Of a stretch of DNA of 64,000 nucleotides, positions 14,094-64,000 are shown one piece after another (position 1 is the stretch's first letter; each line of letters opens with the position of its first letter). Under the pieces are notes generated by a model, which made no database searches, was not told the origin of the DNA, and worked only from the letters and a program-made list of their open reading frames with translations. The position numbers and the translations under genes were made by a program. Origin of the DNA: Candidatus Bipolaricaulota bacterium (lineage in GTDB: Bacteria; Bipolaricaulota; Bipolaricaulia; UBA7950; UBA9294); contig JBFMGK010000067.1 of the NCBI GenBank assembly GCA_040752575.1, positions 1,931-65,930 on the forward strand, given 5' to 3'.

Positions 14094-14103
14094 GGTCTCC
14101 GCC

Positions 14104-15069: not shown

Positions 15070-15070
15070 A

Positions 15071-31449: not shown

Positions 31450-31528
31450 CTCAGCCCGGCTCCTTGCCGCGGGCCGGCCTGCCAACGCAGGCCAGCCCGC
31501 GTCCTAACTGCCCAACAACAGACGCTCT

Positions 31529-32719: not shown

Positions 32720-32839
32720 CTTGGCCCTTCCTTTCGACCTCACGTAGATCTCTGCGACTCCGACGTTCTCGAGCCTTCTCAGGTCTGTGTCCGCGTCACC
32801 TCCTCTTCTCTACAGGGTCCGGAAAACTCCGCTTCGCGC

Positions 32840-34463: not shown

Positions 34464-34483
34464 GTTTGCCTCTTCCTCCTACG

Positions 34484-35979: not shown

Positions 35980-35988
35980 CTCACGCCC

Positions 35989-37203
35989 CTAGAAGCCACC
36001 GTAGGTCTCACGCTCCCAATCCCGCTCGTCGGTTGAGTACACGACGGCCACATCGTCGGATCCGAAGATGGCCGCGGCGGCGCTGCGATCCATCGTTCCT
36101 GCCTCGACGAACGCCGTGATGAGCTGCAGCGTCTCCGCGGGGCGGTGGATCGGGAATCCGTGGTCGTAGCCCCGGCCGGACTTGAGCATCACCGCGGTCA
36201 CGTTTGCCCCCGCAACGCGCAGGTCGTACTTCGTGTTCTGGGTGATGGAGTCGGCAATCACGAGATCGCCGCGCCATCTGAGCCGATCGGTCTCGGCCTT
36301 CACCAGGAGAACATCGAGTCCTGCCAACGCATCGAGGCGGTCGGCCCCGGGAAGGGTCACCACGGCGCCGTCTTGGTTCCGATGCGACAGCGTCTCGGCC
36401 GCGAAGTTGAACATATGGCTCGCGTAGAGAGACTCCGGCATGTACTGCGTCTTCTGGACGTCTTCGAGCACCGCGCGGTAGGCTGGCGTCTCGAGGTACG
36501 CAGGATCGCCGACGGACATCCGCGCGAGGTCGTACGCGAGGACCTCGTTGAACACCACGAGATTCCAGGCGGCTGCCATGTCTTCGGGCGAACGCTGCTC
36601 GCCCCACAAGGAACGCTGCTGGAACGCGACGGCGTCGATCGAGTCCGCCCAATCCCCCAACGCGTAATGCTTCCCCGTCTGCGGATCGGTACCCCCCGTC
36701 GTCGGAGAGAACATCACGCGCACGCCTCGCGTCCCGATCCCGGCCAGAGAGATCAGTCGCGAGACGCTTGCCCGGCTCCTCACGGCCAGGCACTGGGCCA
36801 CTCCGAACCCCATCGAGTGGCCGACGAGCGTGAGGTCGCCTCTGCGCAGGCAGGAATCGCTCTCGATCACCTCGGCGAAGTCCGCGGCGAAGTCGTCGAG
36901 CGAGGTGATCGGGTGATGGTAGGTCGAGCGGCCGCTTCCCCGGTAGTCCAGGGCATAGAACGTGTAGCGGTTGTAGACGTCCGCCCGCGCCGCGACCCGG
37001 CATAGCAGCTCCCGAAAGGCCTCGCCCGAGCAGTTGTTGCCCGCGAGAAGGACAACGGCCTCGTCTCCGCGACCGACGCGCAGGACTCCGATCGCTTCCC
37101 CGCTCGACACGCGCACGGTGCGCTCCTCGACGCGGCGTGACGCCGGACCGCTGCACGACGAGAGAAGACCGACAAAGCAAAAGGTCATCCCCAGGCCCAG
37201 CAT
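35989..37203 (-). CDS. alpha/beta hydrolase lipoprotein
   Basis: Start at MLGLGMTFCFVGLLSSCSG (lipobox LSSC), GGAGGAG RBS. Nucleophile elbow GHSMG. Confidence 0.7.
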   Translation of the reverse strand: MLGLGMTFCFVGLLSSCSGPASRRVEERTVRVSSGEAIGVLRVGRGDEAVVLLAGNNCSGEAFRELLCRVAARADVYNRYTFYALDYRGSGRSTYHHPITSLDDFAADFAEVIESDSCLRRGDLTLVGHSMGFGVAQCLAVRSRASVSRLISLAGIGTRGVRVMFSPTTGGTDPQTGKHYALGDWADSIDAVAFQQRSLWGEQRSPEDMAAAWNLVVFNEVLAYDLARMSVGDPAYLETPAYRAVLEDVQKTQYMPESLYASHMFNFAAETLSHRNQDGAVVTLPGADRLDALAGLDVLLVKAETDRLRWRGDLVIADSITQNTKYDLRVAGANVTAVMLKSGRGYDHGFPIHRPAETLQLITAFVEAGTMDRSAAAAIFGSDDVAVVYSTDERDWERETYGGF

Positions 37204-37269
37204 CTCGCTCCTCCATCGCCGTAGGCGCTGACTTGATCGCACTTCGCTCGCCATCCTGCTCTGGCGCTC

Positions 37270-38007
37270 CTAGGGAATGAGGCCGCCATCCACGCATACG
37301 ACGGACCCGTTCACATAGGCGGCGTCGTCCGACGCAAGGAACAGGTACACGTTCGCCACGTCGCGCGCCGTGCCCAGACGGCCGAGCGGCGTTCGCGACC
37401 GCATGAGGTCCAGGACTTTCTCCGGGACCCCCTCGGTCATCTCCGTCTGGATGAACCCCGGAGCGACGGCATTGACCGTGATCCCCTTCCGCCCAAGTTC
37501 ACGGGCCCACACTTTGGTCATTCCGATGACTCCGGCCTTCGTCGCAGCGTAGTTTGTCTGCCCGAAGTTCCCGTAGACTCCGACGACGGAAGAGACGTTG
37601 ATGATCCGGCCGCTTCCCTGGTCCAGCATCCGCGGGGCCACCGCCTGCGTGAGGTTGAACGTGCCTTTGAGGTTCACGGCGATAACCCGATCGAAGTCGT
37701 TCTCGGAGAGCTTGACCAGCTGCGCATCGCGGGTGATGCCGGCGTTGTTGACCAGAATGTCGATCCGGCCGAATGCGCTCACGGCGGACTCGACGAGCGC
37801 CGAGCACTGCTCGCGGCTCGTGACATCGCCGCGCGCGAAGGTCGCCTCCCCCCCATGGGATCGGATCTCCAGGACGACCTTCTCTCCCTGCGGATCGACA
37901 TCGGCAACAACGACTCTGGCCCCTTCTCGGGCGAACAGCGTGGCGGCCTCGCGGCCAATCCCGCGACCAGCCCCCGTGATCATGGCGACCTTCCCCGCTA
38001 GGCGCAT
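37270..38007 (-). CDS. fabG: 3-oxoacyl-[ACP] reductase (FabG-like SDR)
   Basis: Start at MRLAGKVAMITGAGRGIG with AAAGGAGA upstream. NNAGI and YAATK motifs. Full-length FabG-like. Confidence 0.85.
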   Translation of the reverse strand: MRLAGKVAMITGAGRGIGREAATLFAREGARVVVADVDPQGEKVVLEIRSHGGEATFARGDVTSREQCSALVESAVSAFGRIDILVNNAGITRDAQLVKLSENDFDRVIAVNLKGTFNLTQAVAPRMLDQGSGRIINVSSVVGVYGNFGQTNYAATKAGVIGMTKVWARELGRKGITVNAVAPGFIQTEMTEGVPEKVLDLMRSRTPLGRLGTARDVANVYLFLASDDAAYVNGSVVCVDGGLIP

Positions 38008-38023
38008 GACGACCGTCTCCTTT

Positions 38024-39043
38024 CTAGGCCCATCGGAACAGCGCCGTGGACAAGACAAACCCCGCACCCGACGTACAGAACGCCACCAGATCGCCCGCCG
38101 AGATCCGCCCCCGGTCCAGAGCATCGCAGAGCGCCATGAAGACGGATGCCGAGCCCGCGTAGCCGAACTTGTCGGCGACCCAATGAGTCTTTTCCATCGA
38201 GAGGCCCAAAGCCTCGAGCGTCGCTCGCACAGCTCCCACTTCCACCTGGTTCATGAGGACAAGATCGAGATCCTTCGGCGTCACGCCGGCGGCTTCGGTG
38301 GTCTTGCGCATCAGAACTGGCCATCGCGTGACGTTGAAGTCGCCGGGTACGCGGTGAGCGTTCTCGTGGAACCTCAGGTAGTGCTGCTTGTTCGCCACCA
38401 TCTCCGGCGTCAGAGGACGTCCTGTCCCGAGGTAGATGCCGTAGGTATCCCAGCAGCTGCCTTCACTCATCATCTTGCTCGCCAGGTACCCGGGCTCGCG
38501 GGACGGCGAGAGCACAACGGCTCCGGCGCCGTCACTGAACAGCGTGGCCAGCACCTTGGAAGCCGATTGGGAATAGGGGCTCCAGTCTAGCCACTTCGTC
38601 ATGCCGTAGGCGCCTACGATGACGACGTGCTGGATCGCCGGGTCCAGGGCGATGTAGTGCGACCCGATCGCCAGGGCGATCGTCTCGTCGGTGCACGCGG
38701 CGTTGATGTCGAAAGCACCAGCGTTCCGGGCTCCCAGCTTGTGCTGGATGATCGCCGAGGTCGGCGGGCTCACGTAGTCCGGCGTGTCCGTCGCGAGGAT
38801 GATCAGGTCGACCTCATCCGGCCGAAGCCCGGCCTGCTTCAAGGCCTGGCGCGTCGCCTCGACCGCCATGTCAGACGCGGACTCGTCGGGCCGGGCCCGA
38901 AATCGGACGCCGATCCCCTTCTCCGCGAGGTACGACTCGACGTCGTACTCCATCATCCTCCCGAGTTCGGCGTTGGTGATCCGCTCCTCGGGGATGTACA
39001 TCCCGACCCCGGAGATCTTGGCAGCTCGCAGCGCGTTGACCAT
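38024..39043 (-). CDS. 3-oxoacyl-ACP synthase III (FabH)-like condensing enzyme with a non-canonical triad
   Basis: 339 aa. Aligns with FabH through the AFDxxAAC(T) active-site Cys and DGAGA motifs. The positions of FabH His244 and Asn274 appear as Asn (LMNQVE) and Tyr (FGYAGSAS). Confidence 0.75.
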   Translation of the reverse strand: MVNALRAAKISGVGMYIPEERITNAELGRMMEYDVESYLAEKGIGVRFRARPDESASDMAVEATRQALKQAGLRPDEVDLIILATDTPDYVSPPTSAIIQHKLGARNAGAFDINAACTDETIALAIGSHYIALDPAIQHVVIVGAYGMTKWLDWSPYSQSASKVLATLFSDGAGAVVLSPSREPGYLASKMMSEGSCWDTYGIYLGTGRPLTPEMVANKQHYLRFHENAHRVPGDFNVTRWPVLMRKTTEAAGVTPKDLDLVLMNQVEVGAVRATLEALGLSMEKTHWVADKFGYAGSASVFMALCDALDRGRISAGDLVAFCTSGAGFVLSTALFRWA

Positions 39044-39049
39044 CGTGAC

Positions 39050-39496
39050 CTACCCCTCCACCCTGGCCAGAACGACGGTCGCTCGACCGTCGGGAAGGAT
39101 CTCGGCGCGGGGCATCAGCGACATCCCCACCCGGAGCGCGTCGGCCGGAACGCCAAGGATCCAGCCCGTGACGCGCAACCCGTTCTTCATCTCGACGATG
39201 CCCACCGGGCGCGGCTGATACGAGTAGGCGGAGAACGGCGCGGTGCGCGACAGGTCCGGCGTGAAGTGCTTGGGCGTAACGTAGATCGATGTGAACGAGA
39301 TCAGGCGGCCTTCGCCGGACACCGGCACCCACTCAAACGCCGATCCCAGGCAATGGGGACAGTCGCTACGCGGCGGGTACTGCAGCACCCCGCAGGACGA
39401 GCATTTGGAAGCCAGGATCTCTCCACGACCGAGCCCATCGACGAAACCATGCACCTTCGTGTCCTGGATCTGCAGACTGAAGTCTCGGAACTGCAT
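39050..39496 (-). CDS. DUF35 OB-fold/Zn-ribbon protein (thiolase-associated)
   Basis: 148 aa. CxxC...CxxC zinc ribbon (CSSCGVLQYPPRSDCPHC) plus an OB-fold. ATGA overlap with the upstream thiolase. Confidence 0.8.
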   Translation of the reverse strand: MQFRDFSLQIQDTKVHGFVDGLGRGEILASKCSSCGVLQYPPRSDCPHCLGSAFEWVPVSGEGRLISFTSIYVTPKHFTPDLSRTAPFSAYSYQPRPVGIVEMKNGLRVTGWILGVPADALRVGMSLMPRAEILPDGRATVVLARVEG

Positions 39497-39498
39497 CC

Positions 39499-40665
39499 CT
39501 ACTCCTTGTCCGTCGAGAAGATGTGCACCGCTGCGTGCTGCCCGTTGCCGCCGACGTTGTGCGACAGACCCATCTCCGCGCCGGAGACCTGGCGCCCCGG
39601 CTCCGCCTCGCCGCGGAGCTGCTTGGTGATCTCGACGGCCATCGAGACGCCGGTCGTCCCGATGGGATGCCCCTTGGACTTCAGGCCTCCGTCGACATTG
39701 ACCGGAATCCTCCCACCAATCGACGTGTGCCCCTCCTCGACCAGCGGACCTCCCTCGCCGCGCGAGCAGAAGCCGAGGTCTTCATAGGCAACGACCTCAG
39801 CAATCGTGAAACAGTCATGAACCACCGCAACGTCGATGTCTTTCGCTTGTACCCCAGCCATCTCATAGGCCTGCCGCGCCGCCTCGACGGTCGCGCCGAG
39901 CGTCGTCAGGTCCTCGCGATGCGCGAGGGACAGGCTGCCGGTACCCAGACCCAGGCCGCGGATCCAGACGGGCCTTCTCGACATGCGCTTGGCCAGCTTC
40001 TCGGAGGCCAGCAGCACGGCAGCCGCGCCGTCTGAGATCAGGCAGCAGTCGTAGAGCTTGAGCGGGGAGGCAACGACAAACGAACTGAGCGCCTTCTCGA
40101 GGGTGATCTCCTTACGCAGATGCGCGTACGGGTTGAGCGCGCCGTAGCGATGATTCTTGACGGCAACGGCGGCAAGCTGCTCTTCCGTGGTCCCGTACTT
40201 GGCCATGTGGGCTCGAGCAATGAGCGCGTAGTAGCCCGGAAACGTCATTCCGAACGGGTACTCCCAGAGGAAGTCCCCGGCGCGCCCCAGCACTTCGGTC
40301 GCGCGCGCCGTCGGCACTTCCGTCATCTTCTCGGCCCCGACGACCAGCACGAGGTCCGCGAGACCGCAGGCGACGTTCATCCATCCCGTCCGCACGGCCA
40401 TGCTCCCCGACGCGCAAGCGCCTTCCACGCGGAAACTCGGTCTGGGGTGAAAACCAAGGTAGTCGACGACCTGTGCAGACGGCTGAAGTGCACAACTCAA
40501 CTCGTCCGAGGCCACACTGACGACCATGGCCTCGACATCGGCAAGGGGAACGCCGGCATCCTGCAGGCACGCGGCAACTGCCTCGAAGGCCAGCTCGCGC
40601 AGCGATGCGTCCTCGCGAACTCCAAACCGGCCGTGCCCGACGCCGACGACGGCAACGTTTTGCAT
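39499..40665 (-). CDS. thiolase-like protein (SCP-x/archaeal-type acetyl-CoA C-acyltransferase family)
   Basis: 388 aa. Active-site Cys in the GACASGSMAV context, with C-terminal HDCF and GG motifs. GGGAGG RBS. Confidence 0.85.
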   Translation of the reverse strand: MQNVAVVGVGHGRFGVREDASLRELAFEAVAACLQDAGVPLADVEAMVVSVASDELSCALQPSAQVVDYLGFHPRPSFRVEGACASGSMAVRTGWMNVACGLADLVLVVGAEKMTEVPTARATEVLGRAGDFLWEYPFGMTFPGYYALIARAHMAKYGTTEEQLAAVAVKNHRYGALNPYAHLRKEITLEKALSSFVVASPLKLYDCCLISDGAAAVLLASEKLAKRMSRRPVWIRGLGLGTGSLSLAHREDLTTLGATVEAARQAYEMAGVQAKDIDVAVVHDCFTIAEVVAYEDLGFCSRGEGGPLVEEGHTSIGGRIPVNVDGGLKSKGHPIGTTGVSMAVEITKQLRGEAEPGRQVSGAEMGLSHNVGGNGQHAAVHIFSTDKE

Positions 40666-40835
40666 CCCGCCTCCCTGACGGCACGTGAGACCCGGACCCC
40701 TGATGGTGCGGTCAGCGGACCCCGGGGTGTGAAGGGTGACTCAGGTCTCACACTAGCATGGAAGGCGCGCTAAGGTCAACCAGAGACGGTCCTCGGCGGA
40801 GCCGTGGCCACGCTCCCGGCGGCCTGCGGCTCTCG

Positions 40836-42077
40836 CTAGCCGTTGCGGTCGAGAAGTCCTCTCTCCAGAAAGTCCAGCAGGGCGCAGACGACCCGGTCCG
40901 CAGGCACGGGCTTGGCGTCATCGGCCAGCCACCACAAGGCCACGGAGTGCCCGGCACCCAGAAGGGCATAAGAGAGGGGCTCAGGCGCCATCCTGTAGAC
41001 CTCTCCGCGCTCCATCGCCTGACTCAGTCCCGCGGTGTAGCCTCTCGCGAGCCGCTCGTAATACCAACGTCCCGTCTCGGGATCGATCAGCTCTGCCTCG
41101 CGGATGATCCAGTAGGCACCGCGATGCGCAGCGATGAACCGAAAGAAAGCCTGGAAACCCGCAACCTCGACCTCGCGCCGGTCGACGATTCCCGCCAGCG
41201 CGGCTCGTTCCGCGGCTCTGAACTTCCTGTTGATCTCGCGCGCAAGCTCGGCAAAGATAGCCACCTTGCTCGGGAAGTGCAGGTAGAACGTGCCCTGCGC
41301 CACGCCCGCGACGTAGGTGATCGCGGAGACGGATGTCTGATAGAACCCCGTCTGCCCGAACAGACGTTCGGCCGCATCGAGAAGTGCCTGACGCGTGGCT
41401 TCCCCTCCCTGCAATGTGTCCGCGGGGTCGCCTTGCCGAGGCTCGGCCCCGACAGGAGGCCTCTTCATGCCCTCCACCCTGGCGGTGCCGGTGTCGAACC
41501 CGCTCATCACGAGACACTCCAGCGTGCGGTACACGCCCTCATGAAGCGAACCCGGCTCCCAAAGGATGTACCGCATCACCATGAACTCGAGCATCCCAAG
41601 AATCGCGTACGCGGCAGTGGTTTCGTCCACCGCCCGGAAAACGCCGCTCTCGACGCCCGCCCGAAGGACGCGTCCCAACGCCTCGGCAAGGTTCATCCGG
41701 AACTGCCGATGGATCCCAAGCCGAATCGCTTCCGCGCCACGGCCGACGCGATAGAGCGCCGATTCGCGGGCGATGTAGTGAAGCACGTCGCGACACGCTT
41801 GGAGCAGGGCATCGCGGCCGTCGGCCGCCTCGGCGAGCGCTCGCTGGATGCGCTCGCGCATGCCGTTCTGAAGACGCTCGACGAGCGCCGCGAAGATCTC
41901 CTCTTTGTGCTCGAAGTGCCGGTAGAACGTCCCGTTCGCGAGTCCGGCTCTGCGGCAGATCTCCGAGACGGACGCCTCGTGATATCCCCGCTCGCTGAAC
42001 ACGGCTTCCCCGGCTTGCAGGAGCGCTTCTCGCGTTCTCGCCGGAGTGGACCTTCTGCCGCCGATGCCTTTCACCAT
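40836..42077 (-). CDS. tandem-domain TetR-family transcriptional regulator
   Basis: Start at MVKGIGGRRSTP with GGGAGGA upstream. Two TetR N-terminal HTH units (ASVSEICRRAGLANGTFYRHF and TSVSAITYVAGVAQGTFYLHF) in one polypeptide. Confidence 0.8.
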   Translation of the reverse strand: MVKGIGGRRSTPARTREALLQAGEAVFSERGYHEASVSEICRRAGLANGTFYRHFEHKEEIFAALVERLQNGMRERIQRALAEAADGRDALLQACRDVLHYIARESALYRVGRGAEAIRLGIHRQFRMNLAEALGRVLRAGVESGVFRAVDETTAAYAILGMLEFMVMRYILWEPGSLHEGVYRTLECLVMSGFDTGTARVEGMKRPPVGAEPRQGDPADTLQGGEATRQALLDAAERLFGQTGFYQTSVSAITYVAGVAQGTFYLHFPSKVAIFAELAREINRKFRAAERAALAGIVDRREVEVAGFQAFFRFIAAHRGAYWIIREAELIDPETGRWYYERLARGYTAGLSQAMERGEVYRMAPEPLSYALLGAGHSVALWWLADDAKPVPADRVVCALLDFLERGLLDRNG

Positions 42078-42199
42078 GAGGGATCCTCCCGCGTCCTCGC
42101 CCGCGGCGCCGTCACGTCGGCACGGCTCCTCGCGAATGGTACGACGCCCTCTGCGAAGCGCCAAGGCTCGAGGACAGGCAGATGCCCCGCTACGCCTGG

Positions 42200-42228
42200 T
42201 TGTACGTTCCCAAACGTGCAAGCTACAA
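42200..42228 (+). promoter_or_regulatory. candidate promoter with imperfect palindrome upstream of coaBC
   Basis: TTGTAC-N18-TACAAT. The spacer contains the palindrome TTGTACGTT-ccc-AACGTGCAA (8/9 arm matches). It lies in the divergent TetR/coaBC intergenic region. Confidence 0.35.
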
Positions 42229-42250
42229 TCCTCGAGACTCTGGTGAGATC

Positions 42251-55946: not shown

Positions 55947-57002
55947 TTAGTCGCTCCCGCGACTCTCCGCCGGGAAGTCCGCGCCGCCCTGCAGGTCGAT
56001 CTCGCCGGACTCTCCCGTCGTTCCACGGAGCACAAGCCCGCGAACGCCATCCACGCGAAGCAGAGCGTAGTCGGGATCCTCCGCGCCTCCCGGCCAATCG
56101 TCTCGCCACTCCTCGCGCCAGGCCCGTCGCGTGCGCGCGACGTCCGGCTCGAGGACGGCGCGGCCATGGAGCGAGGCGTAGTTGAACCTCTCGTTGTCGA
56201 CGAATAGGAGCGTTACTTGCGGGTGGGCTGCTACCTGCGCGACCTTCTGCGAACTTCGGGATGTGGGGAACCACAGCGTGGCTCCCTCGCGATCGACAAT
56301 CCTCATCGGCCGCGCGGTCGGGAAACCGTCCTCACCCAGGGTCACCAGCAAAGGAAACGTCATCGCATTGACCACGGCCCAGAAGGCCTCCGAGGCGCTC
56401 TCGCGGCTTTTCGGTGCCGGGTCCGGGGTCTGAATGATGTCGGCTCCGTCGATGGAGAACGAATGAACCACGCGGTCGACAAGCTCCGTGCGGACGAGGA
56501 GCACCGCCACGGCGGTCGACTGCAGAACCCGGCGAAGCGTCGCTGCATGCCCTCCACCGTCCAGTTCCCAGCGACCGATCTCGTCCACGACGACGACCTC
56601 CGCCTTGTCAAGGGCCCCTTGCAGTGCCCGGCGCGCGAACTCCAACCCGCTCTCTCGGACGAAGAAGCGACCCACGGGGATTCCCGGGGGAGAGGTGCGG
56701 GCGAAGGGCACGTCTTCGCCGCTCATCAGATCCAGCGCGTTGTACCCCGTGGTCTGCCCGCGATCGAGGAGGCGCGGCGCAAGCACCCCCCCGACCGGCG
56801 TTCCGTTCGCGCGGAGTTGCTGCACCAATCGCAGAGCGGCGGCCGTCTTCCCCGCCCCGATCTCCCCCGCGAGGATCACCGCGCGCCCGGGGCGCCGCCC
56901 CCGGTCGCCACGGAGTTGGTTCAGCACGGCAGCGTAGAGATCGGAGTCCAGGGCGTCTCTCCACGCGTTGCGGCGCTTCGGCGCGTGCGGCGAGGGATTC
57001 AA
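55947..57002 (-). CDS. fusion protein: THEP1/NTPase_1-like P-loop NTPase plus PNPOx-like FMN-binding split-barrel domain
   Basis: N-terminal domain with P-loop AGEIGAGKT and Walker B VVVDEIGRWE. C-terminal ~150 aa has the pyridoxamine-5'-phosphate-oxidase-like / general stress protein 26 pattern. ATGA overlap with the upstream PLP-enzyme gene. Confidence 0.6.
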   Translation of the reverse strand: MNPSPHAPKRRNAWRDALDSDLYAAVLNQLRGDRGRRPGRAVILAGEIGAGKTAAALRLVQQLRANGTPVGGVLAPRLLDRGQTTGYNALDLMSGEDVPFARTSPPGIPVGRFFVRESGLEFARRALQGALDKAEVVVVDEIGRWELDGGGHAATLRRVLQSTAVAVLLVRTELVDRVVHSFSIDGADIIQTPDPAPKSRESASEAFWAVVNAMTFPLLVTLGEDGFPTARPMRIVDREGATLWFPTSRSSQKVAQVAAHPQVTLLFVDNERFNYASLHGRAVLEPDVARTRRAWREEWRDDWPGGAEDPDYALLRVDGVRGLVLRGTTGESGEIDLQGGADFPAESRGSD

Positions 57003-58474
57003 CGCGAGAGCTCCTTCAGCAGGCCGACGTCATCGTTGAACGATGCGATGGCTTCGTCGATCGCCGGGACCATCTCGTGGATTCGCTCCCAGTAGCCGGG
57101 GAAATCGTTCCACTGAGCGTTGAGTTCTTCGACGGACCTCCCCATCTGCTCCACCCACGTGAAGTACTTCAGCTGATGGATCCGTCGGCGATCCGCCTGA
57201 CGGAGTTCCAGAACGTGGTCAGTGCCCTGCCCGCGCAGTCGGGCGTGGAAGTCGAGGACGGCATTGCGCTCCGCGTACGGTCCGTGCAAGGCGTCCAGCT
57301 CGGCGATACGCGTGCGATAGAGCTCCATCGAGTCGGTCATCACGGTGAGGACAATGTCGCCGGCTCCGAGTTCGTAGTACTTCGCGAACTTGATCGCGGA
57401 CAGAAGATTCGCAACGCTGGAGATGCCCAACAGGTCGAGTTGCTCAACCAGGGGTTCCGGGACGCCTTCGCGAACGAGGAATTGCCTTCCAAGAGGCTCG
57501 TTGAACAGGCGGAGGAGCGCCATCGCATCGTCATCGTCGATGGCCATGACCATGTCGGTGTTTCGCACGTTGTGGATCCAAGGAATATGCTTGTCTCCGA
57601 TTCCCTCGATACGGTGCGCGCCGAAGCCGTTCTCCAACAGCGTGGGACACTGCAGCGCTTCCGAGACGGCCAACTTGCTCGCCGGGAACCGCTGCTTCAG
57701 GAAGTCCCCGCAGCCGGTCGTTCCGGCCGATCCCGAGGTCAGGACGACGCCGGCGTAGCTGCCCCGATGCCCCTGCGCCTCGATAACGTCGGCCATGGCG
57801 TGGCCGGTCACGTCGTAGTGCCAAAGGTGGTTTCCCGGTTCGTCGAATTGGTTGAAGATGTAGACGTTCTCGCGCGTTGCCTGGAGTTCCTTGCACTTCT
57901 GGAAGATCTCCCAGACATTCGACTCGGATCCCGGCGTGGCGATGACTTCACCTGCAACCTGCGACAGCCACTCGAACCGCTCGCGCGACATCCCCTGCGG
58001 GAGGATGGCGATGGACTCGCAGGCCAACAGGTTCGCGTCGTAGGCTCCGCCGCGGCAGTAGTTTCCCGTCGAGGGCCAGACGGCCTTGTGGAAGGTCGGG
58101 TCGAACTGACCGGTGACGAGCCTTGGAACCAAGCAGCCAAACGTAGCGCCCACTTTGTGCGCTCCCGTGGGGAACCACTTTCCGACGAGCGCGATGATCC
58201 GCGCAGGCACCCCCGTAAGCTCCTCCGGGAACTCGAGGGTATTGACGCCGCCGAATCCGCCGCCTCGCTGGACGGGCTCGTTCTTCCACGTGATGCGGAA
58301 CAGGTTCAGCGGATGGAGATCCCACAGGCCGATGGCGGCGAGACGCTCGACGATGGCGGGGGGAATCTGCGCCGGTTCCTTCATCTGCGCGAACGTGGGG
58401 ATGATGATCCCCCTCTCGCGCGCCCGTCGAACGGCCCGCTCCCTTGGTTCACGTCGCACCTCTAGATCGATCAT
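56999..58474 (-). CDS. fold-type II (TrpB-like) PLP-dependent enzyme
   Basis: Start at MIDLEVRREP with GAGGGAGG 6 nt upstream. TrpB-type lysine motif PTGAHK. Glycine-rich phosphate loop TSGSAGTTG. ~490 aa with N- and C-terminal extensions beyond a minimal TrpB/CysK core. Confidence 0.65.
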   Translation of the reverse strand: MIDLEVRREPRERAVRRARERGIIIPTFAQMKEPAQIPPAIVERLAAIGLWDLHPLNLFRITWKNEPVQRGGGFGGVNTLEFPEELTGVPARIIALVGKWFPTGAHKVGATFGCLVPRLVTGQFDPTFHKAVWPSTGNYCRGGAYDANLLACESIAILPQGMSRERFEWLSQVAGEVIATPGSESNVWEIFQKCKELQATRENVYIFNQFDEPGNHLWHYDVTGHAMADVIEAQGHRGSYAGVVLTSGSAGTTGCGDFLKQRFPASKLAVSEALQCPTLLENGFGAHRIEGIGDKHIPWIHNVRNTDMVMAIDDDDAMALLRLFNEPLGRQFLVREGVPEPLVEQLDLLGISSVANLLSAIKFAKYYELGAGDIVLTVMTDSMELYRTRIAELDALHGPYAERNAVLDFHARLRGQGTDHVLELRQADRRRIHQLKYFTWVEQMGRSVEELNAQWNDFPGYWERIHEMVPAIDEAIASFNDDVGLLKELSR

Positions 58475-58486
58475 CCCTTGCCTCCC

Positions 58487-58508
58487 TCGCAGCTTCGGCC
58501 CGCCTGCG
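58487..58508. promoter_or_regulatory. palindrome CGCAG-N11-CTGCG in divergent intergenic region
   Basis: Lies between the divergently transcribed PLP-enzyme and hydantoinase genes. Its GCAG...CTGC half-sites resemble the repeats upstream of arcC. Confidence 0.3.
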
Positions 58509-58592
58509 TCAACACACATTGAGGCCGCTCGACGTTCATGCTATCATGCAGTCAGACCGGTTCGCAAGACGGCCAAGGGAAGGGAACGGAAC

Positions 58593-59963
58593 GTGCAGGC
58601 TGAGCTCGCCATACGCGGGGGCACCGTCGTCACGCCGTGGGCGGCGTTCACGTCGGACGTCGCGATCGAAGGTGGACGTATTGCGGCCGTCGGAGACCAC
58701 CAGCGAGGGCGGCGCGAGATCGACGCCACGGGGATGCTCGTCCTGCCGGGAGCGATCGACGCGCACACACACATGGCCGCCCCCGTGGCCGGTCAACGCT
58801 CAAGCGACGACTTCCTTTCGGGATCGCGTGCCGCGGCGAGCGGCGGCGTCACGACAATCATCGACTTCACGGCAGGCTCTCCCGAACGTTCGATTCCCGA
58901 GGCGATCGAGGCGCGCGAACGCGATGCCGCACCCTGTATTGTTGACTACGCTTTGCACGGAGAGGTCGTGGGATGGACGCCCGGTCGCGAAAGCGAGTTC
59001 GGGGACGCGGTCGAGCTCGGGGTGGCGAGCTTCAAGTTCTACACAACGTATGAGTCGTCTGGGTTGAGGACGCCGCCGGACATCATGGCGCCTGCCTTCC
59101 GTGAGCTGGCGTTTCTTGGCGCGATCGCCCTCGTGCACGCCGAAGACGAGGGGCTTCTGCGCTCCATGGCCGCCCGGCTGAACGAAGCGGACCGCGGCCG
59201 CATGGCGACGCTGGCCGAGGCTCGCCCGGATCTGGCCGAAGCCGCCGCCATTTCTCAGGTCGGACGTCTGGCCCGCGACGCAGGCTGTCGACTCCACATC
59301 GTCCATGTGAGCTCGGCAGCAGGCCTCAGCGCCGTTCGCGCCGCGCGCGCTGCAGGCGGCCGGCTCACGGCCGAGACGTGCCCGCAGTATCTCCTGCTCA
59401 CGCGCGATGTGTACGACCTGCCCGACGGACACCTCTTCGCCGTCATGCCGCCGCTGCGACGCGCGGAGGACCGTCGCACTCTCTGGTCCGGACTCGCGCG
59501 GCGCGACCTGGACTTCGTGGCCACGGATCACTGCCCGTTCACCCGCGCGCAGAAGGCGTGGAGAGGAGCGTTCGACCTCGTAGCCTACGGCCTTCCGGGA
59601 GTCGAGACGCTTCTGCCTCTCCTGTTCTCGGAGGGTGTCGCCAAGGGACGTCTCGCCTTGCCCGACGTCGTACGTCTTCTTGCCGAGGGACCGGCGAGAA
59701 CCTACGGCCTCTACCCCGCGAAGGGGAGCCTCGAGGTGGGCGCCGATGCCGATGTCGTGTTGTTCGATCCGGCTGCCGCGTGGACGATCCGGGCGAGCGA
59801 TCTCCATATGGAAACCGACTTCTCGCCGTATGAGGGCTTCGGAGTCACGGGCCGTGTCGTCCGAACCCTCTCGAGAGGCGAAGAGATCTTCCGGGACGGC
59901 GAGATCGTCGCCTCCGCCGGGCGGGGCCACCGTGTGCACACGAAGCCCCTCGAGGTTTTGTGA
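58593..59963 (+). CDS. D-hydantoinase / dihydropyrimidinase-family cyclic amidohydrolase
   Basis: GTG start with GGGAAGGGAA upstream. Metal ligands IDAHTH. Carbamylated-lysine context SFKFYTTY, plus VHAED, HIVHVSS and ATDHCPF. The ORF-track N-terminal extension is rejected. Confidence 0.85.
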   Translation: MQAELAIRGGTVVTPWAAFTSDVAIEGGRIAAVGDHQRGRREIDATGMLVLPGAIDAHTHMAAPVAGQRSSDDFLSGSRAAASGGVTTIIDFTAGSPERSIPEAIEARERDAAPCIVDYALHGEVVGWTPGRESEFGDAVELGVASFKFYTTYESSGLRTPPDIMAPAFRELAFLGAIALVHAEDEGLLRSMAARLNEADRGRMATLAEARPDLAEAAAISQVGRLARDAGCRLHIVHVSSAAGLSAVRAARAAGGRLTAETCPQYLLLTRDVYDLPDGHLFAVMPPLRRAEDRRTLWSGLARRDLDFVATDHCPFTRAQKAWRGAFDLVAYGLPGVETLLPLLFSEGVAKGRLALPDVVRLLAEGPARTYGLYPAKGSLEVGADADVVLFDPAAAWTIRASDLHMETDFSPYEGFGVTGRVVRTLSRGEEIFRDGEIVASAGRGHRVHTKPLEVL

Positions 59964-60018
59964 CGCCCCGGAACCGACGGACGGCTGAGGCCCCGGGATC
60001 CGGGGGCGAGGAGGAAGC

Positions 60019-60727
60019 GGTGCGCTTTCAGAGAGTCCAGCCGAGGAAGGTTTCGGCTATCGCCGCGGAGCAGATCCTCGCCGCGATCGAGCGCGGCGAT
60101 TACCCCGTTGGCAGCCGCCTACCCTCGGAGTTCGATCTGGCGCTCCAGATGGGCGTGAGTCGCCCGTCGATCCGCGAGGCGCTCTCCGCCCTCCAAGCCA
60201 TGGGCGTTGTCGAATCGAAGCCGGGAAGCGGGAACTACATCCTGCGCACCGCTTCGACGGCCGACCAGTTCCATGCCGTCGGACTGATGGAGAGCGAAGC
60301 CAGTTGTCTCGAGGTGATGGACGCCCGGGGCGCGCTCGAACCGGCCGTGGCGGCCCTCGCAGCGCAGAAGGCCGACGAGTCCGCCGTTGTACGGCTTAGG
60401 GAAGCCATTGAACGCATGCGGCAACTCGCGGCAGCGAACGACTTTGAGGCGTACTTCGAGGCAGATCGAGCTTTCCACGAGGAGCTGTCCGCCGGTTCGG
60501 GGAATCCGCTCATCGCATCGGCGCTCGCTCCCCTGATCGCGACGATGGGACAGACCGTCTACCGGAAGTTCACGAGGCACTACTACCTCAAGAATGTGAG
60601 CGATCTCCAGCACGTGGTCGACCTCCATCAGGAGATCCTCGATGCCGTGGAGAAAGCTGACGCCGAAACCGCGCGGGCGAAGATGGAGGAACACTGGGCG
60701 CGCATGCGCGAGATCTGGGAAGCGTAG
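60019..60727 (+). CDS. GntR-family (FadR/FCD subfamily) transcriptional regulator
   Basis: N-terminal winged HTH (LPSEFDLALQMGVSRPSIREAL) and C-terminal all-helical FCD domain. The start is either the GTG at 60019 after GAGGAGGAAG, or the GTG at 59960 overlapping the hydantoinase stop. Confidence 0.8.
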
Positions 60728-60735
60728 TGGAGAGG

Positions 60736-60817
60736 CGGCAGCCCCTGTGCCTGCCGCAGATCGAGAGAGGATGGGGCGGCAGTCCCTGTGCCTGCCGCAG
60801 ATCGAGAGAAAGGATGA
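60736..60817 (+). repeat. tandem direct repeat (2 × ~40 bp) with internal palindrome upstream of arcC
   Basis: GCGGCAG[C/T]CCCTGTGCCTGCCGCAGATCGAGAGA(G/AA)GGATG(G/A) occurs twice, head to tail. Each copy contains the inverted repeat CGGCAG-N9-CTGCCG and a GAGAGRGG-ATG translation-initiation-like segment. Confidence 0.7.
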
Positions 60818-60821
60818 TGGG

Positions 60822-61775
60822 ATGGCGAGCGAGAAGCAGCTGGTCGTCGTTGCCCTGGGCGGGAATGCCATTCTCCAGCCCGGGCAGCGCGGAACCTTCG
60901 AAGAGCAGATGAAGAACGTCCACCTGACTTGCGAGCAGTTGGCGCACATGGTGGAGTCCGGACGTTACCGAGTCGTGGTGACCCACGGCAACGGGCCGCA
61001 GGTGGGCAACATCCTGCTGCAGAACGAGGTCGGCAAGGAGGTCGCCGCGCCGATGCCGCTGTTTGTCTGCGGAGCCGAGAGCCAGGGGCTTATCGGGTTC
61101 ATGATCCAGCAGAACCTGAGCAACCTTCTTGCCGCCAAAGGGCGCGCGGACATCCCGGTAGCCACCCTGGTAACCCAGGTTGTCGTCGACGCAGACGACG
61201 AAGCCTTCCGTCACCCGACCAAGCCCGTGGGGCCGTTCTACACAGCCGAAGAAGCGAAGCGATTGAGCGAAGAGAAAGGTTACGACGTCAAGGAGGACGC
61301 GGGTCGCGGCTGGCGTCGGGTCGTTGCGTCTCCAGATCCGAAGGAGATCTTCGAGAAGGAGGCCATCCGGCAACTCATTGCCGCTCGCGCGATCGTCATT
61401 GCCTCGGGAGGAGGCGGGATCCCCGTCGTCCGCGAGGACGGGCAATTGCGGGGCGTCGACGCGGTCATCGACAAGGACCTTGCGGGCGAACGGCTTGCCG
61501 CGGATGTCGGCGCATCCATTTTCATGATCCTGACCGACGTCGAGCAGGCGAAGCTCCACCACCGCACGCCGCAGGAGAAGGCGCTCAGCCGCCTCACCGT
61601 GCGCGAGGCGAGTCAGTACCTCGCCGAGGGGCACTTTGCCAAGGGGTCCATGGAGCCGAAGGTCCGCGCCGCGGTCCGTTTCGTCGAGTCGGGAGGAGAG
61701 AAGGCCATCATCACCTCGCTCGACAAGGCCACCGACGCCTTGGAGGGCAAGGCGGGCACGACCATCACACGATAG
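60822..61775 (+). CDS. arcC: carbamate kinase
   Basis: MASEKQLVVVALGGNAI (carbamate-kinase N-terminus). AAK-fold motifs VVTHGNGPQVG and IASGGGGIPV. 317 aa from this start. An in-frame ATG 51 nt upstream lies inside the first repeat copy. Confidence 0.85.
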   Translation: MASEKQLVVVALGGNAILQPGQRGTFEEQMKNVHLTCEQLAHMVESGRYRVVVTHGNGPQVGNILLQNEVGKEVAAPMPLFVCGAESQGLIGFMIQQNLSNLLAAKGRADIPVATLVTQVVVDADDEAFRHPTKPVGPFYTAEEAKRLSEEKGYDVKEDAGRGWRRVVASPDPKEIFEKEAIRQLIAARAIVIASGGGGIPVVREDGQLRGVDAVIDKDLAGERLAADVGASIFMILTDVEQAKLHHRTPQEKALSRLTVREASQYLAEGHFAKGSMEPKVRAAVRFVESGGEKAIITSLDKATDALEGKAGTTITR

Positions 61776-61806
61776 GCAACCCACGTAACGAAAGAAGGAG
61801 AGTTCT

Positions 61807-62844
61807 ATGTCCAACACCACTCTGAGAGGGCGAGACTTCATCACCTGGCTCGAATTCACGCGCGACGAACTCGAGGCCATGCTGGATACCGCCCACGACC
61901 TGAAGCGGAAGTTCATCCGCCGCGAGCCTCACAAGGTTCTCGACGGCCAGACGCTCCACATGCTCTTCTACAACACGTCCCTGCGGACGCGCAACTCGTT
62001 TGAGGCGGCCATGACGCAGCTCGGCGGGCACGCCCACTTCCTCCAGTCCGACGCCGTCTACACGCCGGCGCTGAAGGGAGACGAGAAGGCCTACAAGACC
62101 GAGCGGATCAGCGACGTTGCCCGCGTATTGGCGGAGATGGGAGATGCCATTGCCATCCGCATCTACGGGAAGTACACCGACTGGAAGTACGGCAAGGGCA
62201 ACCAGATGATCCGCGAGTTCGCGCGCTGGTCAAAGGTCCCGGTGATCAATATGGAAGACGACATGTTCCATCCGTGCCAGGACCTTGCCGACGTCATGAC
62301 CATGCAGGAGAAGCTCGGCCACGACCTCCAGGGCAAGAAGTTCGTGATGAGCTGGGCGTATTCTGGTTCGGTGGAGAAGCCGCTCGCCGTGCCGCAGAGC
62401 TGCATCGTCGCCGCGGCGACCATGGGCATGGACGTTACGCTCGCGCACCCGAAGGGCTTCGATCTTGATCCCAAGGTTGTGCAAGCCACGAAGGATCTTG
62501 CCAAGAAGCACGGCGGCGGATTCAGGATCCTGAACGACATGGAGGAGGCCTTCAAGGGCGCCCACGTCGTGTACCCGAAGGCGTGGACGGTGCAGCCGAC
62601 CGACGGCAAGACGCCGATGGACGCGGAGAAGGCGAAGGCGCTCTTCGAAGCCAACAAACACTGGATCACGACGCAGGAGAAGATGAAGCTCACGAACGAC
62701 GCGATCTACATGCATTGTCTGCCTGCGGACCGAGACATGGAGGTGACCGACGAGGTCATCGACGGCCCCAACTCGGTGATCATCGAGCAGGCAGCCAATC
62801 GGCTGCACGGCCAGAAGGGTATGATGGCCTGCATCATGGCCTAG
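61807..62844 (+). CDS. YgeW-like divergent carbamoyltransferase (aspartate/ornithine carbamoyltransferase superfamily)
   Basis: Carbamoyl-phosphate motifs SLRTR (STRTR-like), HPCQ and HCLP. The second-substrate loop is MSWAYSG rather than OTC SMG. 345 aa. Confidence 0.8.
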   Translation: MSNTTLRGRDFITWLEFTRDELEAMLDTAHDLKRKFIRREPHKVLDGQTLHMLFYNTSLRTRNSFEAAMTQLGGHAHFLQSDAVYTPALKGDEKAYKTERISDVARVLAEMGDAIAIRIYGKYTDWKYGKGNQMIREFARWSKVPVINMEDDMFHPCQDLADVMTMQEKLGHDLQGKKFVMSWAYSGSVEKPLAVPQSCIVAAATMGMDVTLAHPKGFDLDPKVVQATKDLAKKHGGGFRILNDMEEAFKGAHVVYPKAWTVQPTDGKTPMDAEKAKALFEANKHWITTQEKMKLTNDAIYMHCLPADRDMEVTDEVIDGPNSVIIEQAANRLHGQKGMMACIMA

Positions 62845-62916
62845 GCGGGGGAAGGGGCTGCAGAGGGTCGGACGTTGCCGGATCCTCTGCGGCCCCCAGG
62901 TCCGAAGGGAGGTCAC

Positions 62917-63942
62917 ATGAGTTGGTTCGATCTCGCAGGGCGAGACCTGATCGGGGAGACGGACTGGACTCGCGAGGAGTACAACATCGCGATGAAGGTC
63001 ACCGATCAGCTCAAAGGGGCTTACTACAGCAGGCTTCCTCACCCAACCCTGCAGTACAAGACGTTTGCCATGTTGTTCTTCGCGGGCTCGACGCGAACGC
63101 GGATGTCGTTCGAGACGGCGATGACCCAACTCGGAGGGCACGCCCAGTTCATCGACCCGAAGACCATGCGCCTCTCGCTCGAGGACAAGCCGGGCGCCGG
63201 CGAGACCGTCAAGGACACGGCGGAAGCCATGGAACGCTACTGCGACGGCGTCGGCATTCGGCTCCTCGACGACGCCATCCAGCGATACGGCGAGGCGGAC
63301 GAGGTGATGCAGAAGTTCGCAAAACACTGCCGCGTGCCGATCATCAACATGGCGTCCGACATCTACCACCCGTGCCAATCGCTGACCGACATCTACACGA
63401 TGCACGAGAAGCTTGACGCGGACGTGAAGGGGAAGAAGATCGTGATCATGTGGGCCTGGTCGCCATGGATCCGCGGCTGGTGCTCGGTGCAGGGCACGGC
63501 GCTGATCTCGTCGATGTACGGGATGGACGTCGTCGTGGCGAACCCGCCCGAGTACGACCTCGACCCGAAGATCATGAAGGAGTGCCGCGATCTGGCTACG
63601 GCATCGGGCGGCTCGTTCGAGATCTCGCACGACCTGGACAAGGCGCTTGACGGCGCGACGGTCGTCTTCCCGCGCAACTGGTTCACCAAGGACCGCTACG
63701 CACTGGGAAAGGACAAAGAGGCGGAGATCGCGAAGAAGTACGCGAACTGGAAGTACTCGAGCGAGCGACAGAAGAAACTCGGGGCCCCAGGCTATCTCCT
63801 GCAGTGCATGCCCGTGGATCGCGGCAACGAGGCCGACGCCGAGGTCTGCGACAATCGCCTCTCGTGGATCCTCGATCAGGCGGAGAATCGCCTTCACACG
63901 CAGAAGGCCATTCTTACGCTGACGATGGGAGGACGTCTGTAG
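62917..63942 (+). CDS. YgeW-like divergent carbamoyltransferase, paralog 2
   Basis: Start at MSWFDLAGRDL with GGGAGG upstream. STRTR, HPCQ and a QCMP (HCLP-position) motif. Second-substrate loop IMWAWSPW. 341 aa, alignable with the preceding gene. Confidence 0.8.
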   Translation: MSWFDLAGRDLIGETDWTREEYNIAMKVTDQLKGAYYSRLPHPTLQYKTFAMLFFAGSTRTRMSFETAMTQLGGHAQFIDPKTMRLSLEDKPGAGETVKDTAEAMERYCDGVGIRLLDDAIQRYGEADEVMQKFAKHCRVPIINMASDIYHPCQSLTDIYTMHEKLDADVKGKKIVIMWAWSPWIRGWCSVQGTALISSMYGMDVVVANPPEYDLDPKIMKECRDLATASGGSFEISHDLDKALDGATVVFPRNWFTKDRYALGKDKEAEIAKKYANWKYSSERQKKLGAPGYLLQCMPVDRGNEADAEVCDNRLSWILDQAENRLHTQKAILTLTMGGRL

Positions 63943-64000
63943 TGGCGGGGGGCGGCTTGACGAATCTCGGCGCGGCGATCCCTAGGCCGGACGCCGTCGA

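Follow-up and report, generated by a model that had tools for sequence, protein, structure and literature searches.

Background and the locus

The closest described counterpart of the locus treated here is the reductive uricolytic (2,8-dioxopurine) pathway of E. coli, whose chemistry was solved in 2025 and whose cluster also occurs in Clostridium sporogenes (PMC12507026; bioRxiv 10.1101/2025.04.24.650524). A preliminary description of our locus, made from the DNA letters alone, had still taken that chemistry to be incompletely resolved. The E. coli cluster comprises xdhD-ygfM, ygfK, ssnA, hyuA, ygeW, yqeA, ygeY as well as ygeX: urate is reduced by XdhD together with YgfK (or UacX), HyuA opens a hydantoin to yield 2,3-diureidopropionate, YgeW phosphorolyses one ureido group, YqeA makes ATP, YgeY hydrolyses the other ureido group and YgeX turns 2,3-diaminopropionate into pyruvate (PMC12507026; bioRxiv 10.1101/2025.04.24.650524). 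The ring-opening amidohydrolase SsnA is a marker of the pathway, and a luciferase-like reductase variant is seen in Chloroflexota (PMC12507026); which of the two ureido groups goes first is still disputed (PMC12990295). Here, we analyze a stretch of 64,000 nucleotides from a Candidatus Bipolaricaulota bacterium (contig JBFMGK010000067.1, positions 1,931 to 65,930; 65% GC), called the window below, and within it a gene cluster at the right-hand end centered on a carbamate kinase (CK), two transcarbamylases (TC1 and TC2) and a pyridoxal phosphate (PLP)-dependent enzyme that we term PALP-491.

Our analysis points to this cluster being a lineage-specific form of the lower, energy-conserving half of anaerobic reductive purine (uric acid/2,8-dioxopurine) degradation, a reading to which we assign a probability of roughly 0.6. 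Like the uricolytic cluster of E. coli and C. sporogenes, it brings together a HyuA-type hydantoinase, a carbamate kinase, a knotted carbamoyltransferase and a putative molybdenum (Mo) enzyme resembling the xanthine dehydrogenase (XDH) family, and like that cluster it would conserve energy by substrate-level phosphorylation from carbamoyl phosphate. It differs from the E. coli cluster in having two (elsewhere three) transcarbamylases of distinct clades in place of a single YgeW, and in possessing PALP-491 and an NTPase–PNPOx fusion protein but neither YgeY nor YgeX. Moreover, its regulator is of the GntR/FCD type and not, like YgeV, a sigma-54 activator, and the transporters of window-type loci are EamA or Dpp-type ATP-binding cassette (ABC) systems rather than UacT or XanQ. 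The C. difficile variant departs in a different direction, with UacX standing in for YgfK and the D-aminoacylase-like hydrolase UacY for YgeW and YqeA; it is fully hydrolytic, generating neither carbamoyl phosphate nor ATP, whereas the window type appears to be fully phosphorolytic. That variant, with which a UacX-like gene in two close relatives of the window (L002 and L007, see below) agrees, shows the ureido-cleavage and reductase steps to be evolutionarily interchangeable. The arginine and agmatine deiminase pathways, too, run a transcarbamylase in reverse and pair it with a carbamate kinase, but the window cluster has no deiminase, no antiporter and no ornithine or putrescine motifs, and its related clusters have purine gene neighbors. 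What is new is the pair TC1 and TC2 in place of YgeW and YgeY, and a CysK-like family of PLP enzymes, the pathway itself being known. A literature search recovered no paper, in the library searched, on this cluster in Bipolaricaulota/Acetothermia or on double-transcarbamylase variants.

The cluster has the following organization:

55947-57002, minus strand: fusion of an NTPase_1 and a PNPOx-like domain (Pfam, NCBIfam), TTG start
56999-58474, minus strand: PALP-491, a 491-residue fold-type II PLP enzyme (PF00291)
58475-58592: divergent control region (promoter scan, sequence inspection)
58593-59963, plus strand: HYD, a D-hydantoinase/dihydropyrimidinase family protein (HyuA-like), GTG start
59960-60727, plus strand: GntR/FCD (FadR-type) regulator (PF00392 and PF07729)
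60822-61775, plus strand: CK, a carbamate kinase of the ArcC/YqeA type (TIGR00746)
61807-62844, plus strand: TC1, a knotted-type carbamoyltransferase of the OTCace family
62917-63942, plus strand: TC2, a second, divergent carbamoyltransferase of the OTCace family
63942-64000, plus strand: first 19 codons of a molybdopterin subunit of the xanthine dehydrogenase family, cut by the window end

The stop codon of PALP-491 and the TTG start of the NTPase–PNPOx fusion overlap by 4 bp, start/stop overlaps likewise join HYD to GntR and TC2 to the XDH-like gene, and CK, TC1 and TC2 follow one another in this order with gaps of 31 and 72 bp; the overlaps fit two divergent operons. The preliminary description had made out six genes in two divergent units; the genes are intact, and the profile searches agree with the domains it named, the layout recurring in dozens of Bipolaricaulota genomes. 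Its parallel with the E. coli locus, as a ureide catabolic module built on a carbamoyltransferase and a carbamate kinase, is also upheld by the identities between the respective proteins (HYD and HyuA 41%, CK and YqeA 49%, TC1 and YgeW 37%). The genes that it counted are present, but its plus-strand unit is longer than it supposed and continues past the window with the XDH-like gene from position 63942.

The scheme that we propose, in which we infer the substrates, the division of labor between TC1 and TC2 and the PLP reaction, would run as follows. A purine-derived cyclic ureide (e.g., 5-ureidomethyl-hydantoin or 5-ureido-dihydrouracil) would be made by enzymes encoded elsewhere or be imported, with the XDH-like Mo enzyme and an EamA permease past the window end forming an upstream part of the pathway. 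The HyuA-like hydantoinase would open the ring to give 2,3-diureidopropionate, of which TC1 and TC2 would each phosphorolyse one ureido group, yielding two carbamoyl phosphates and 2,3-diaminopropionate; the carbamate kinase would convert each carbamoyl phosphate to ATP. PALP-491 would then dispose of the amine product through a beta-elimination that yields pyruvate and ammonia, and in doing so would also pull the unfavorable phosphorolysis forward. Both operons are probably repressed by the FadR-type GntR protein, acting at a GTCAGAC palindrome beside the promoter. Biochemical work published on the enzymes of E. coli and Clostridium, in which YgeW together with YqeA forms ATP, counts in favor of this scheme.

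Conservation of the cluster and its purine-linked relatives

A scan of a genome collection with the PLP enzyme gave 305 matches, of which the best 80 loci, nearly all from Bipolaricaulota, were fetched; window proteins and additional reference proteins were mapped onto the loci (designated by L numbers) by tblastn. The gene order is the same as in the window in about 35 of the 80. Co-occurrence was counted within 10 kb of the PALP gene in the 33 loci with enough flank and, in addition, over 82 loci. By the former measure, CK is present in 28/33, TC1 in 27/33, TC2 in 24/33, GntR and the NTPase in 26/33 each, PNPOx in 24/33, the XDH-like gene in 14/33 and the hydantoinase in 12/33; by the latter, GntR lies beside CK and PALP in 44 loci, the hydantoinase occurs in 30, and NTPase and PNPOx genes, whether fused or separate, follow PALP in 52 and 42, respectively. 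In L038, L039 and L053, PALP, CK, TC1 and TC2 form a single co-directional operon. The gene arrangement is conserved far beyond chance, and the co-occurrence that the preliminary description had named as a check is borne out for CK and both transcarbamylases. The conserved core is PALP-491, CK, TC1 and TC2; the hydantoinase, which that description had counted among the parts of the module, is accessory, being present in only the 12 well-flanked loci just given.

The module can be placed in reductive purine catabolism because clusters orthologous to that of the window (PALP 57-78%, TC1 51-92% identical) carry genes for SsnA, YgfK, YgeY, adenine deaminase and XDH. In L039, from Fraserbacteria, the order is YgfK - SsnA - ThrC-like - M20 - PALP - CK - TC1 - TC2, with a YgfK 42% identical to that of E. 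coli over 1052 residues and an SsnA scoring 515 bits (cutoff 444) against NF005540. SsnA is also encoded beside PALP in L047 and L053, and in L053 a luciferase-like (Bac_luciferase) oxidoreductase adjoins it, which corresponds to the reductase variant of Chloroflexota (PMC12507026). Two close relatives of the window, L002 and L007 (TC1 91-92%, CK 84% identical), feature between GntR and HYD a UacX/PreA-like DHO_dh-Fer4 protein, an SsnA-like amidohydrolase and a pair of tungsten enzymes of the aldehyde:ferredoxin oxidoreductase (AFOR) type. An adenine deaminase gene lies beside PALP in L017 and L020, and a nucleoside ABC transporter of the PnrA type is encoded in L023. In the cloacimonadotal L088, reached via a PALP family member of 58% identity, the order is YgfK (45%) - FMN_red - YgeY - three transcarbamylases - CK - PALP - YgfM-like - Fer2 - XdhD-like (35%), followed by a ThrC-like gene and a second XDH set. 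Its YgeY scores 542 bits against NF009555 (cutoff 321), and among the surveyed loci YgeY equivalogs are found only here and in L059.

The tandem tungsten-type AFOR genes (L007:4567-8330; also L002, L006 and L028) lie between the SsnA-like gene and the hydantoinase, and in L028 AFOR-like genes flank the PLP gene. These could replace the Mo-dependent XDH in the initial reductive step.

Two anciently diverged transcarbamylases

By their profile scores, neither TC1 nor TC2 is a YgeW equivalog: against TIGR03316 (cutoff 500), they score 166 and 101 bits, respectively, and TC1 reaches 166-179 bits over the YgeW models with cutoffs of 453-500. The 'YgeW-like' label of the preliminary description holds for the loop and motifs of TC1 but not at the level of equivalogs. 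Against the ornithine carbamoyltransferase (OTCase) model TIGR00658 (cutoff 281), the two score 243 and 207 bits; TC2 reaches no NCBIfam cutoff, its best being the N-acetylornithine carbamoyltransferase (AOTCase) model at 221 against 288. In pairwise comparisons, TC1 is 40% identical to the X. campestris AOTCase in an end-to-end alignment, about 37-38% to YgeW and 34% to ArgI, and TC2 is 37% identical to TC1, about 27-30% to YgeW and 30% to ArgI, with an overall range of 27-33% to YgeW, AOTCase and ArgI.

TC1 retains the SLRTR, HPCQ and HCLP motifs, an extended 120s loop and the lysine of YPKAW, and has in common with YgeW the proline-rich loop WAYSGSVEKPLAVPQS (WAYSxSxxKPLxVPQ), YPKxW and HCLPAD. 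In the alignment, both TC1 and TC2 are without the insertions of YgeW (PDB 3q98), i.e., the extra N- and C-terminal helices and the 240s-loop insertion. Aligned with AOTCase (PDB 3kzc), TC1 displays a glutamate at the K302 position and no W77, and its gene context is catabolic rather than one of arginine biosynthesis, never being an arginine operon in the loci surveyed. Its best PDB match is 3m5c, the K302E mutant of the X. campestris AOTCase, because TC1 natively has a glutamate there. In TC2, the carbamoyl-phosphate motifs STRTR and HPCQ are retained, but QCMPVD stands in for HCLP ((C/V)MP for CLP) and FPRNW for YPKSW. It departs from the knotted transcarbamylases (AOTCase, N-succinylornithine transcarbamylase and YgeW) in the substitution of the loop lysine by arginine and in a Trp-rich loop, WAWSPWIRGWCSVQG, instead of a Pro-rich one; its best PDB match is the P. 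furiosus OTCase (187 bits). The DxxxSMG ornithine loop is absent in both.

In a neighbor-joining tree with thin sampling, TC1 and TC2 fall into separate clades with 99% bootstrap each, outside ArgI and PyrB, which agrees with the earlier view that they do not belong with the anabolic ornithine and aspartate enzymes; support for joining TC1 to YgeW is low (23% bootstrap). As each of the two clades holds a Cloacimonadota member (TCb in the case of TC1), the tree indicates that TC1 and TC2 are anciently diverged paralogs and not the result of a recent duplication. The names N-acetylornithine carbamoyltransferase for TC1 and ornithine carbamoyltransferase for TC2, the latter its public annotation, are probably wrong.

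We predict that TC1 phosphorolyses one ureido group and TC2 the other. In L059, the GntR-CK/PALP-NTPase-PNPOx layout of the window recurs, but a single transcarbamylase of a third type together with YgeY (524 bits, cutoff 321) replaces TC1 and TC2, a swap that supports the need for two ureido-cleaving activities. The simplest reading of the sequences would be that the window type is fully phosphorolytic, releasing two carbamoyl phosphates; alternatively, the transcarbamylases may be heteromeric, or TC1 and TC2 may be specialized for different stereo- or regio-isomers.

A strict rule whereby TC2 replaces YgeY was also considered and dropped: the anticorrelation check failed, with M20 genes alongside TC1 and TC2 in four loci and both TC2 and YgeY in L088.

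In CP070725.1, a 'complete' Bipolaricaulota metagenome-assembled genome (MAG) (L001/L012 and L087, at 0.81 and 1.59 Mb), the cluster is broken in the middle of TC1: a 274-residue 5' part of TC1 stands beside CK, and an 88-residue 3' part, TC2 and a truncated XDH of 568 residues lie 0.8 Mb off. This split stems either from a rearrangement accompanied by gene decay or from an assembly error.

A CysK-like family of PLP enzymes and its associates

PALP-491, which is 100% identical to an NCBI protein of a Candidatus Bipolaricaulota MAG, matches only PF00291 and reaches no curated NCBIfam cutoff (91 bits against the CysK model TIGR01139, cutoff 351). A profile of 40 diverse members searched against the PDB recovers CysK/CBS structures at 3.5e-43 over positions ~76-390. 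Similarly, an AlphaFold (AF2) model built from the 40-sequence diverse alignment (mean confidence, pLDDT, 95) has beta-cyanoalanine synthase, CysK, CBS and Fn1055 as its best Foldseek matches at 22-26% identity, with template-modeling (TM) scores of 0.84 normalized to the target and 0.55 to the query. It shares the fold and the PLP motifs of the CysK/BSAS/CBS clade, but in place of the single domain of about 300 residues of CysK it has 491 residues, including two family-specific helical extensions, of about 75 residues at the N-terminus and about 100 at the C-terminus, for which solved structures offer no counterpart. Conserved across the family are K107 (in FPTGAHKVG), predicted to be the Schiff-base lysine, the Asn loop PSTGNY (S-T-G-N) and the Gly loop GSAGT. 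At E<1e-30, a library clustered at 50% contains 323 representatives of the family, with full-length members down to about 32% identity in Cloacimonadota, Planctomycetota, Deltaproteobacteria and the anaerobic protist Aduncisulcus; none carries a more specific name than 'cysteine synthase' or 'PLP-dependent enzyme'. This CysK-like family is tied to modules of the present kind in at least three phyla.

The preliminary description held that the PLP enzyme is unlike that of the E. coli locus. The two are indeed of distinct families, with no similarity in a blastp comparison of PALP-491 and YgeX, but YgeX has the same Pfam fold, PF00291. A YgeX orthologue was found in no surveyed locus except L080, and it is for this reason that we propose a terminal beta-elimination by PALP-491 on diaminopropionate or beta-ureidoalanine. 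Enzymes of the CysK/BSAS clade act at the beta-carbon of alpha-amino acids. We give this assignment only about even odds, because a ThrC-like PLP enzyme accompanies PALP-491. A simpler proposal, that PALP-491 merely replaces YgeX, was weakened by this neighbor and by the true YgeX of L080.

The ThrC-like gene (NF006050, 320 bits, cutoff 303) is found at L039:7530-8804, L053:6692-7948, L088:15115-16368 and L090:8644-9816 and also in L047. It repeatedly adjoins SsnA and the PALP-491 family, even in the distant L090, which is without other pathway genes nearby, and the two proteins may form a two-enzyme PLP module. One member of the PLP family, of 45% identity, is encoded in L091 (VFQN01000128.1) among F420-biosynthesis genes (cofC/D/E/GH) and a luciferase-like oxidoreductase, together with lactamase subunits of the PxpABC-like type, a CoA-transferase and an XDH Mo subunit, with no transcarbamylase and no carbamate kinase; this may represent a different N-heterocycle pathway using the same PLP step. 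A further, 46%-identical homologue, GKT33050.1, comes from Aduncisulcus paluster, an anaerobic free-living metamonad, and could stem from lateral transfer or contamination.

In the fusion protein encoded downstream of PALP-491, a THEP1-type NTPase domain (PF03266/DUF2478, residues ~40-180) is joined to a flavin-binding, PNPOx-like domain of the general stress protein 26 family (residues ~204-321), and its PDB matches are 2i3b (a human cancer-related NTPase) and 2i02 (GSP26).

A broader version of the scheme, which we regard as tentative and on the doubtful side, would have Bipolaricaulota, Fraserbacteria and Cloacimonadota run a fully phosphorolytic purine fermentation yielding two ATP per purine, with a PALP-491 step that is without a published counterpart. 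In this version, PALP-491, possibly with the ThrC-like partner and with the NTPase/flavoprotein as an accessory, might catalyze a beta-elimination of urea or ammonia from D-beta-ureidoalanine or diaminopropionate, or else a beta-replacement, as candidate reactions.

Hydantoinase, carbamate kinase and regulation

HYD passes TIGR02033 marginally (397 bits, cutoff 393) and scores 290 bits against the allantoinase model TIGR03178 (cutoff 358) and 265 against the dihydroorotase model. Over 455 residues, it shares 41% identity with E. coli HyuA, and its top PDB matches are the D-hydantoinases 4tqt and 1yny (~290 bits), with 3dc8 also among them and an allantoinase at 238 bits. These scores sustain the earlier assignment as a hydantoinase and not an allantoinase or dihydroorotase, and the predicted reaction is ring opening of a purine-derived hydantoin or dihydropyrimidine, giving 2,3-diureidopropionate. 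CK exceeds the TIGR00746 cutoff (430 bits against 358), is 49% identical to E. coli YqeA and would catalyze the conversion of carbamoyl phosphate and ADP to ATP and carbamate.

The GntR/FCD protein reaches no NCBIfam cutoff. Its GTG at 59960 overlaps the HYD stop; as its relatives have 235-237 residues, the true start may instead be the GTG at 60020. In the control region, a promoter scan recovers a sigma-70-like promoter of the plus-strand operon, TTGAGG-17-TATCAT at 58519-58547, directly followed by GCAGTCAGACCGG, a GTC-A-GAC palindrome at 58548-58560. The inverted-repeat finder returned nothing for 58475-58592; the short palindrome was picked up by searching the loci for patterns, whereby the GTCAGAC/GTCTGAC core, often as CTGTCAGACAG, was recovered from the PALP-upstream intergenic regions of about 15 related loci. 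By consensus matching only, the palindrome is a plausible candidate for a FadR-type GntR operator.

Continuation of the operon beyond the window

The 19 codons at 63942-64000, whose GTG overlaps the TC2 stop, translate to VAGGGLTNLGAAIPRPDAV. The N-terminus of the 755-residue orthologue in L083, which these codons match, reads LAKGTTLIGAGVPRPDAVDKVRGEARY and contains the stretch GAGVPRPDAV. A gene of this type (PF01315/PF02738/PF20256; Ald_Xan_dh_C/MoCoBD) lies directly 3' of TC2 in L082, L083 and L084 and is found in 19 loci overall, in 4 of which an EamA permease follows it. As the window codons match the XDH-like N-terminus that comes after TC2 in relatives, the full locus extends beyond the window, and its predicted order is [PNPOx-NTPase <- PALP] <-> [HYD -> GntR -> CK -> TC1 -> TC2 -> XDH-like -> EamA]. 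The L083 orthologue is 34% identical to E. coli XdhA and 27% to XdhD; its best NCBIfam models are pucD, xdhB and XdhA, at 513-554 bits, all under their cutoffs. In relatives, the transporters of the operon are an EamA permease or SBP_bac_5 ABC systems. The remark in the preliminary description that there is no transporter is correct for the cluster within the window but owes itself to the window boundary only, such a transporter belonging to the operon in relatives beyond that point.

Counterevidence and rival explanations

Several observations weigh against the assignment to reductive purine catabolism or against parts of it. SsnA, a YgfK/UacX-type reductase and YgeY were not found by tblastn in the 64-kb window, nor were SsnA and the reductase found within 10 kb in its closest syntenic relatives, L083 and L084, and the upstream, purine-opening half of the pathway in the genome of the window is assumed; YgeX was likewise not found in the window. 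Genes for the FeS and FAD partners of a xanthine dehydrogenase were not found in the window or within 10 kb in L083 and L084, and the hydantoinase was not found in many orthologous clusters among the 82 loci mapped. The division of labor between the transcarbamylases has to contend with an ArgE/DapE-type M20 hydrolase alongside TC1 and TC2 in L013, L014, L039 and L054, and with L088, where YgeY coexists with three transcarbamylases. As regards the PLP step, a threonine-synthase-like enzyme stands beside PALP-491 in L039, L047, L053, L088 and L090, and L080 holds PALP-491 plus a true YgeX; given these, PALP-491 may catalyze some other step of the pathway. To this should be added that TC1 passes the NCBIfam model of an anabolic family, the AOTCase model NF003384 (320 bits against 288).

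The missing SsnA and reductase of the window and its closest syntenic loci would also suit an organism that does not degrade purines and in which the module only scavenges ring-opened or monocyclic ureides from neighbors or decaying biomass: 5-substituted hydantoins, dihydropyrimidines, diureido acids or albizziin would be imported via EamA/Dpp-type transporters and fermented by the same enzymes. The transporters of the operon lean in this direction, being EamA or SBP_bac_5 peptide/opine-type ABC systems and no nucleobase permeases, as do five loci (L057, L058, L060, L062 and L066) in which the PLP enzyme has only such an SBP_bac_5-type ABC transporter nearby. This is a real alternative, but we consider it unlikely, for the XDH-like Mo subunit is translationally coupled to TC2, pointing to a heteroaromatic substrate, and the close relatives L002 and L007 have a reductase and an SsnA-like gene in the same operon. 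Reductive pyrimidine degradation, at which the preliminary description had guessed and in which dihydrouracil or dihydrothymine would be opened and the transcarbamylases would split N-carbamoyl-beta-alanine or N-carbamoyl-beta-aminoisobutyrate to carbamoyl phosphate, appears more improbable still. The bare pass of HYD in TIGR02033, a dihydropyrimidinase equivalog model, and the PreA/PydA-like DHO_dh-Fer4 protein of L002 and L007 could be read in its favor, but the purine pathway's own HyuA and UacX are homologous to PydB and PydA, such that matches of this kind do not discriminate. A review of transcarbamylases does list a catabolic beta-alanine transcarbamylase, as a hypothetical enzyme. Fold-type II CysK-like enzymes, however, require as their substrate an alpha-amino acid that bears a leaving group at the beta position, which beta-alanine is not, and SsnA, YgfK, YgeY, adenine deaminase and XDH in the orthologous clusters are purine markers. 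The link to pantothenate and beta-alanine that the preliminary description had drawn does not survive either: CoaBC and CoaX lie 9-13 kb off behind unrelated genes and were not found beside the cluster in L083.

Fermentation of allantoin or another hydantoin, with HYD as an allantoinase and TC1 and TC2 phosphorolysing both ureido groups of allantoate (diureidoacetate), has the attraction that allantoate, to which published commentary likens 2,3-diureidopropionate, also bears two ureido groups, and that the allantoinase score of HYD is substantial. That score is nevertheless below both its cutoff and the hydantoinase score, D-hydantoinases rank first in the PDB, and enzymes acting on ureidoglycine or ureidoglycolate, cupins and AllC homologues were seen in no locus. 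Moreover, once allantoate is stripped of both ureido groups, a CysK-like enzyme is left without a beta-substituted alpha-amino acid to act on, and the SsnA and YgfK neighbors in related clusters belong to the reductive route; we regard this as highly improbable. Least credible is a role in arginine, citrulline or N-acetylcitrulline metabolism, be it with TC1 as a true AOTCase or with TC1 and TC2 as catabolic OTCases acting with CK in an arginine deiminase-like fashion. The AOTCase score of TC1, the public name of TC2 and the adjacency of transcarbamylase and CK, which is typical of the arginine deiminase pathway, are all that speak for it. Neither protein has the ornithine loop, the AOTCase residues K302 and W77 are not kept in TC1, the two do not group with ArgI in the neighbor-joining tree, and no arcA, arcD, agmatine deiminase or arginine biosynthesis gene was seen in about 85 loci. 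The lower half of reductive purine degradation is hence the reading that we favor.

Remaining genes of the window

The left border of the cluster is formed by an RmuC gene followed by sugar-nucleotide genes. Elsewhere, the window encodes oligopeptide and branched-chain ABC transporters, ArgS, PPDK, acyl-CoA genes, a TetR protein, CoaBC and CoaX, which are unrelated to the cluster. Two successive Opp/Dpp-type ABC operons on the minus strand at 5079-19829 have unusually long SBP_bac_5 open reading frames (~895 and ~725 residues). The stretch 28771-42248 encodes a branched-chain-type ABC transporter and, after it, several SDR, enoyl-CoA hydratase, alpha/beta-hydrolase and thiolase proteins, forming an unrelated acyl-CoA catabolic block, which is adjoined by a 470-residue open reading frame with two TetR_N matches.

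Biological implications

The anaerobic uric-acid pathway, solved only in 2025, is of medical interest with respect to gout and the disposal of urate in the gut, and the present locus suggests that its energy-conserving end is widespread in uncultured environmental anaerobes. Ureide cleavage emerges as modular: it appears to rest on a hydrolase only in C. difficile, on one transferase and a hydrolase in E. coli and L059, and on two to three transferases in the window and L088. The pair TC1 and TC2, if specialized as proposed, would offer a handle on the disputed order in which the ureido groups are cleaved (PMC12990295). The probable mislabeling of TC1 and TC2 would lead to arginine metabolism being overpredicted for these MAGs, and the PALP-491 family, with its ~320 cluster representatives at 50% identity, gains a testable functional context. 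If both ureido groups are indeed phosphorolysed, the yield of ATP from carbamoyl phosphate would double, giving these organisms two ATP per purine, where E. coli obtains one and C. difficile obtains none.

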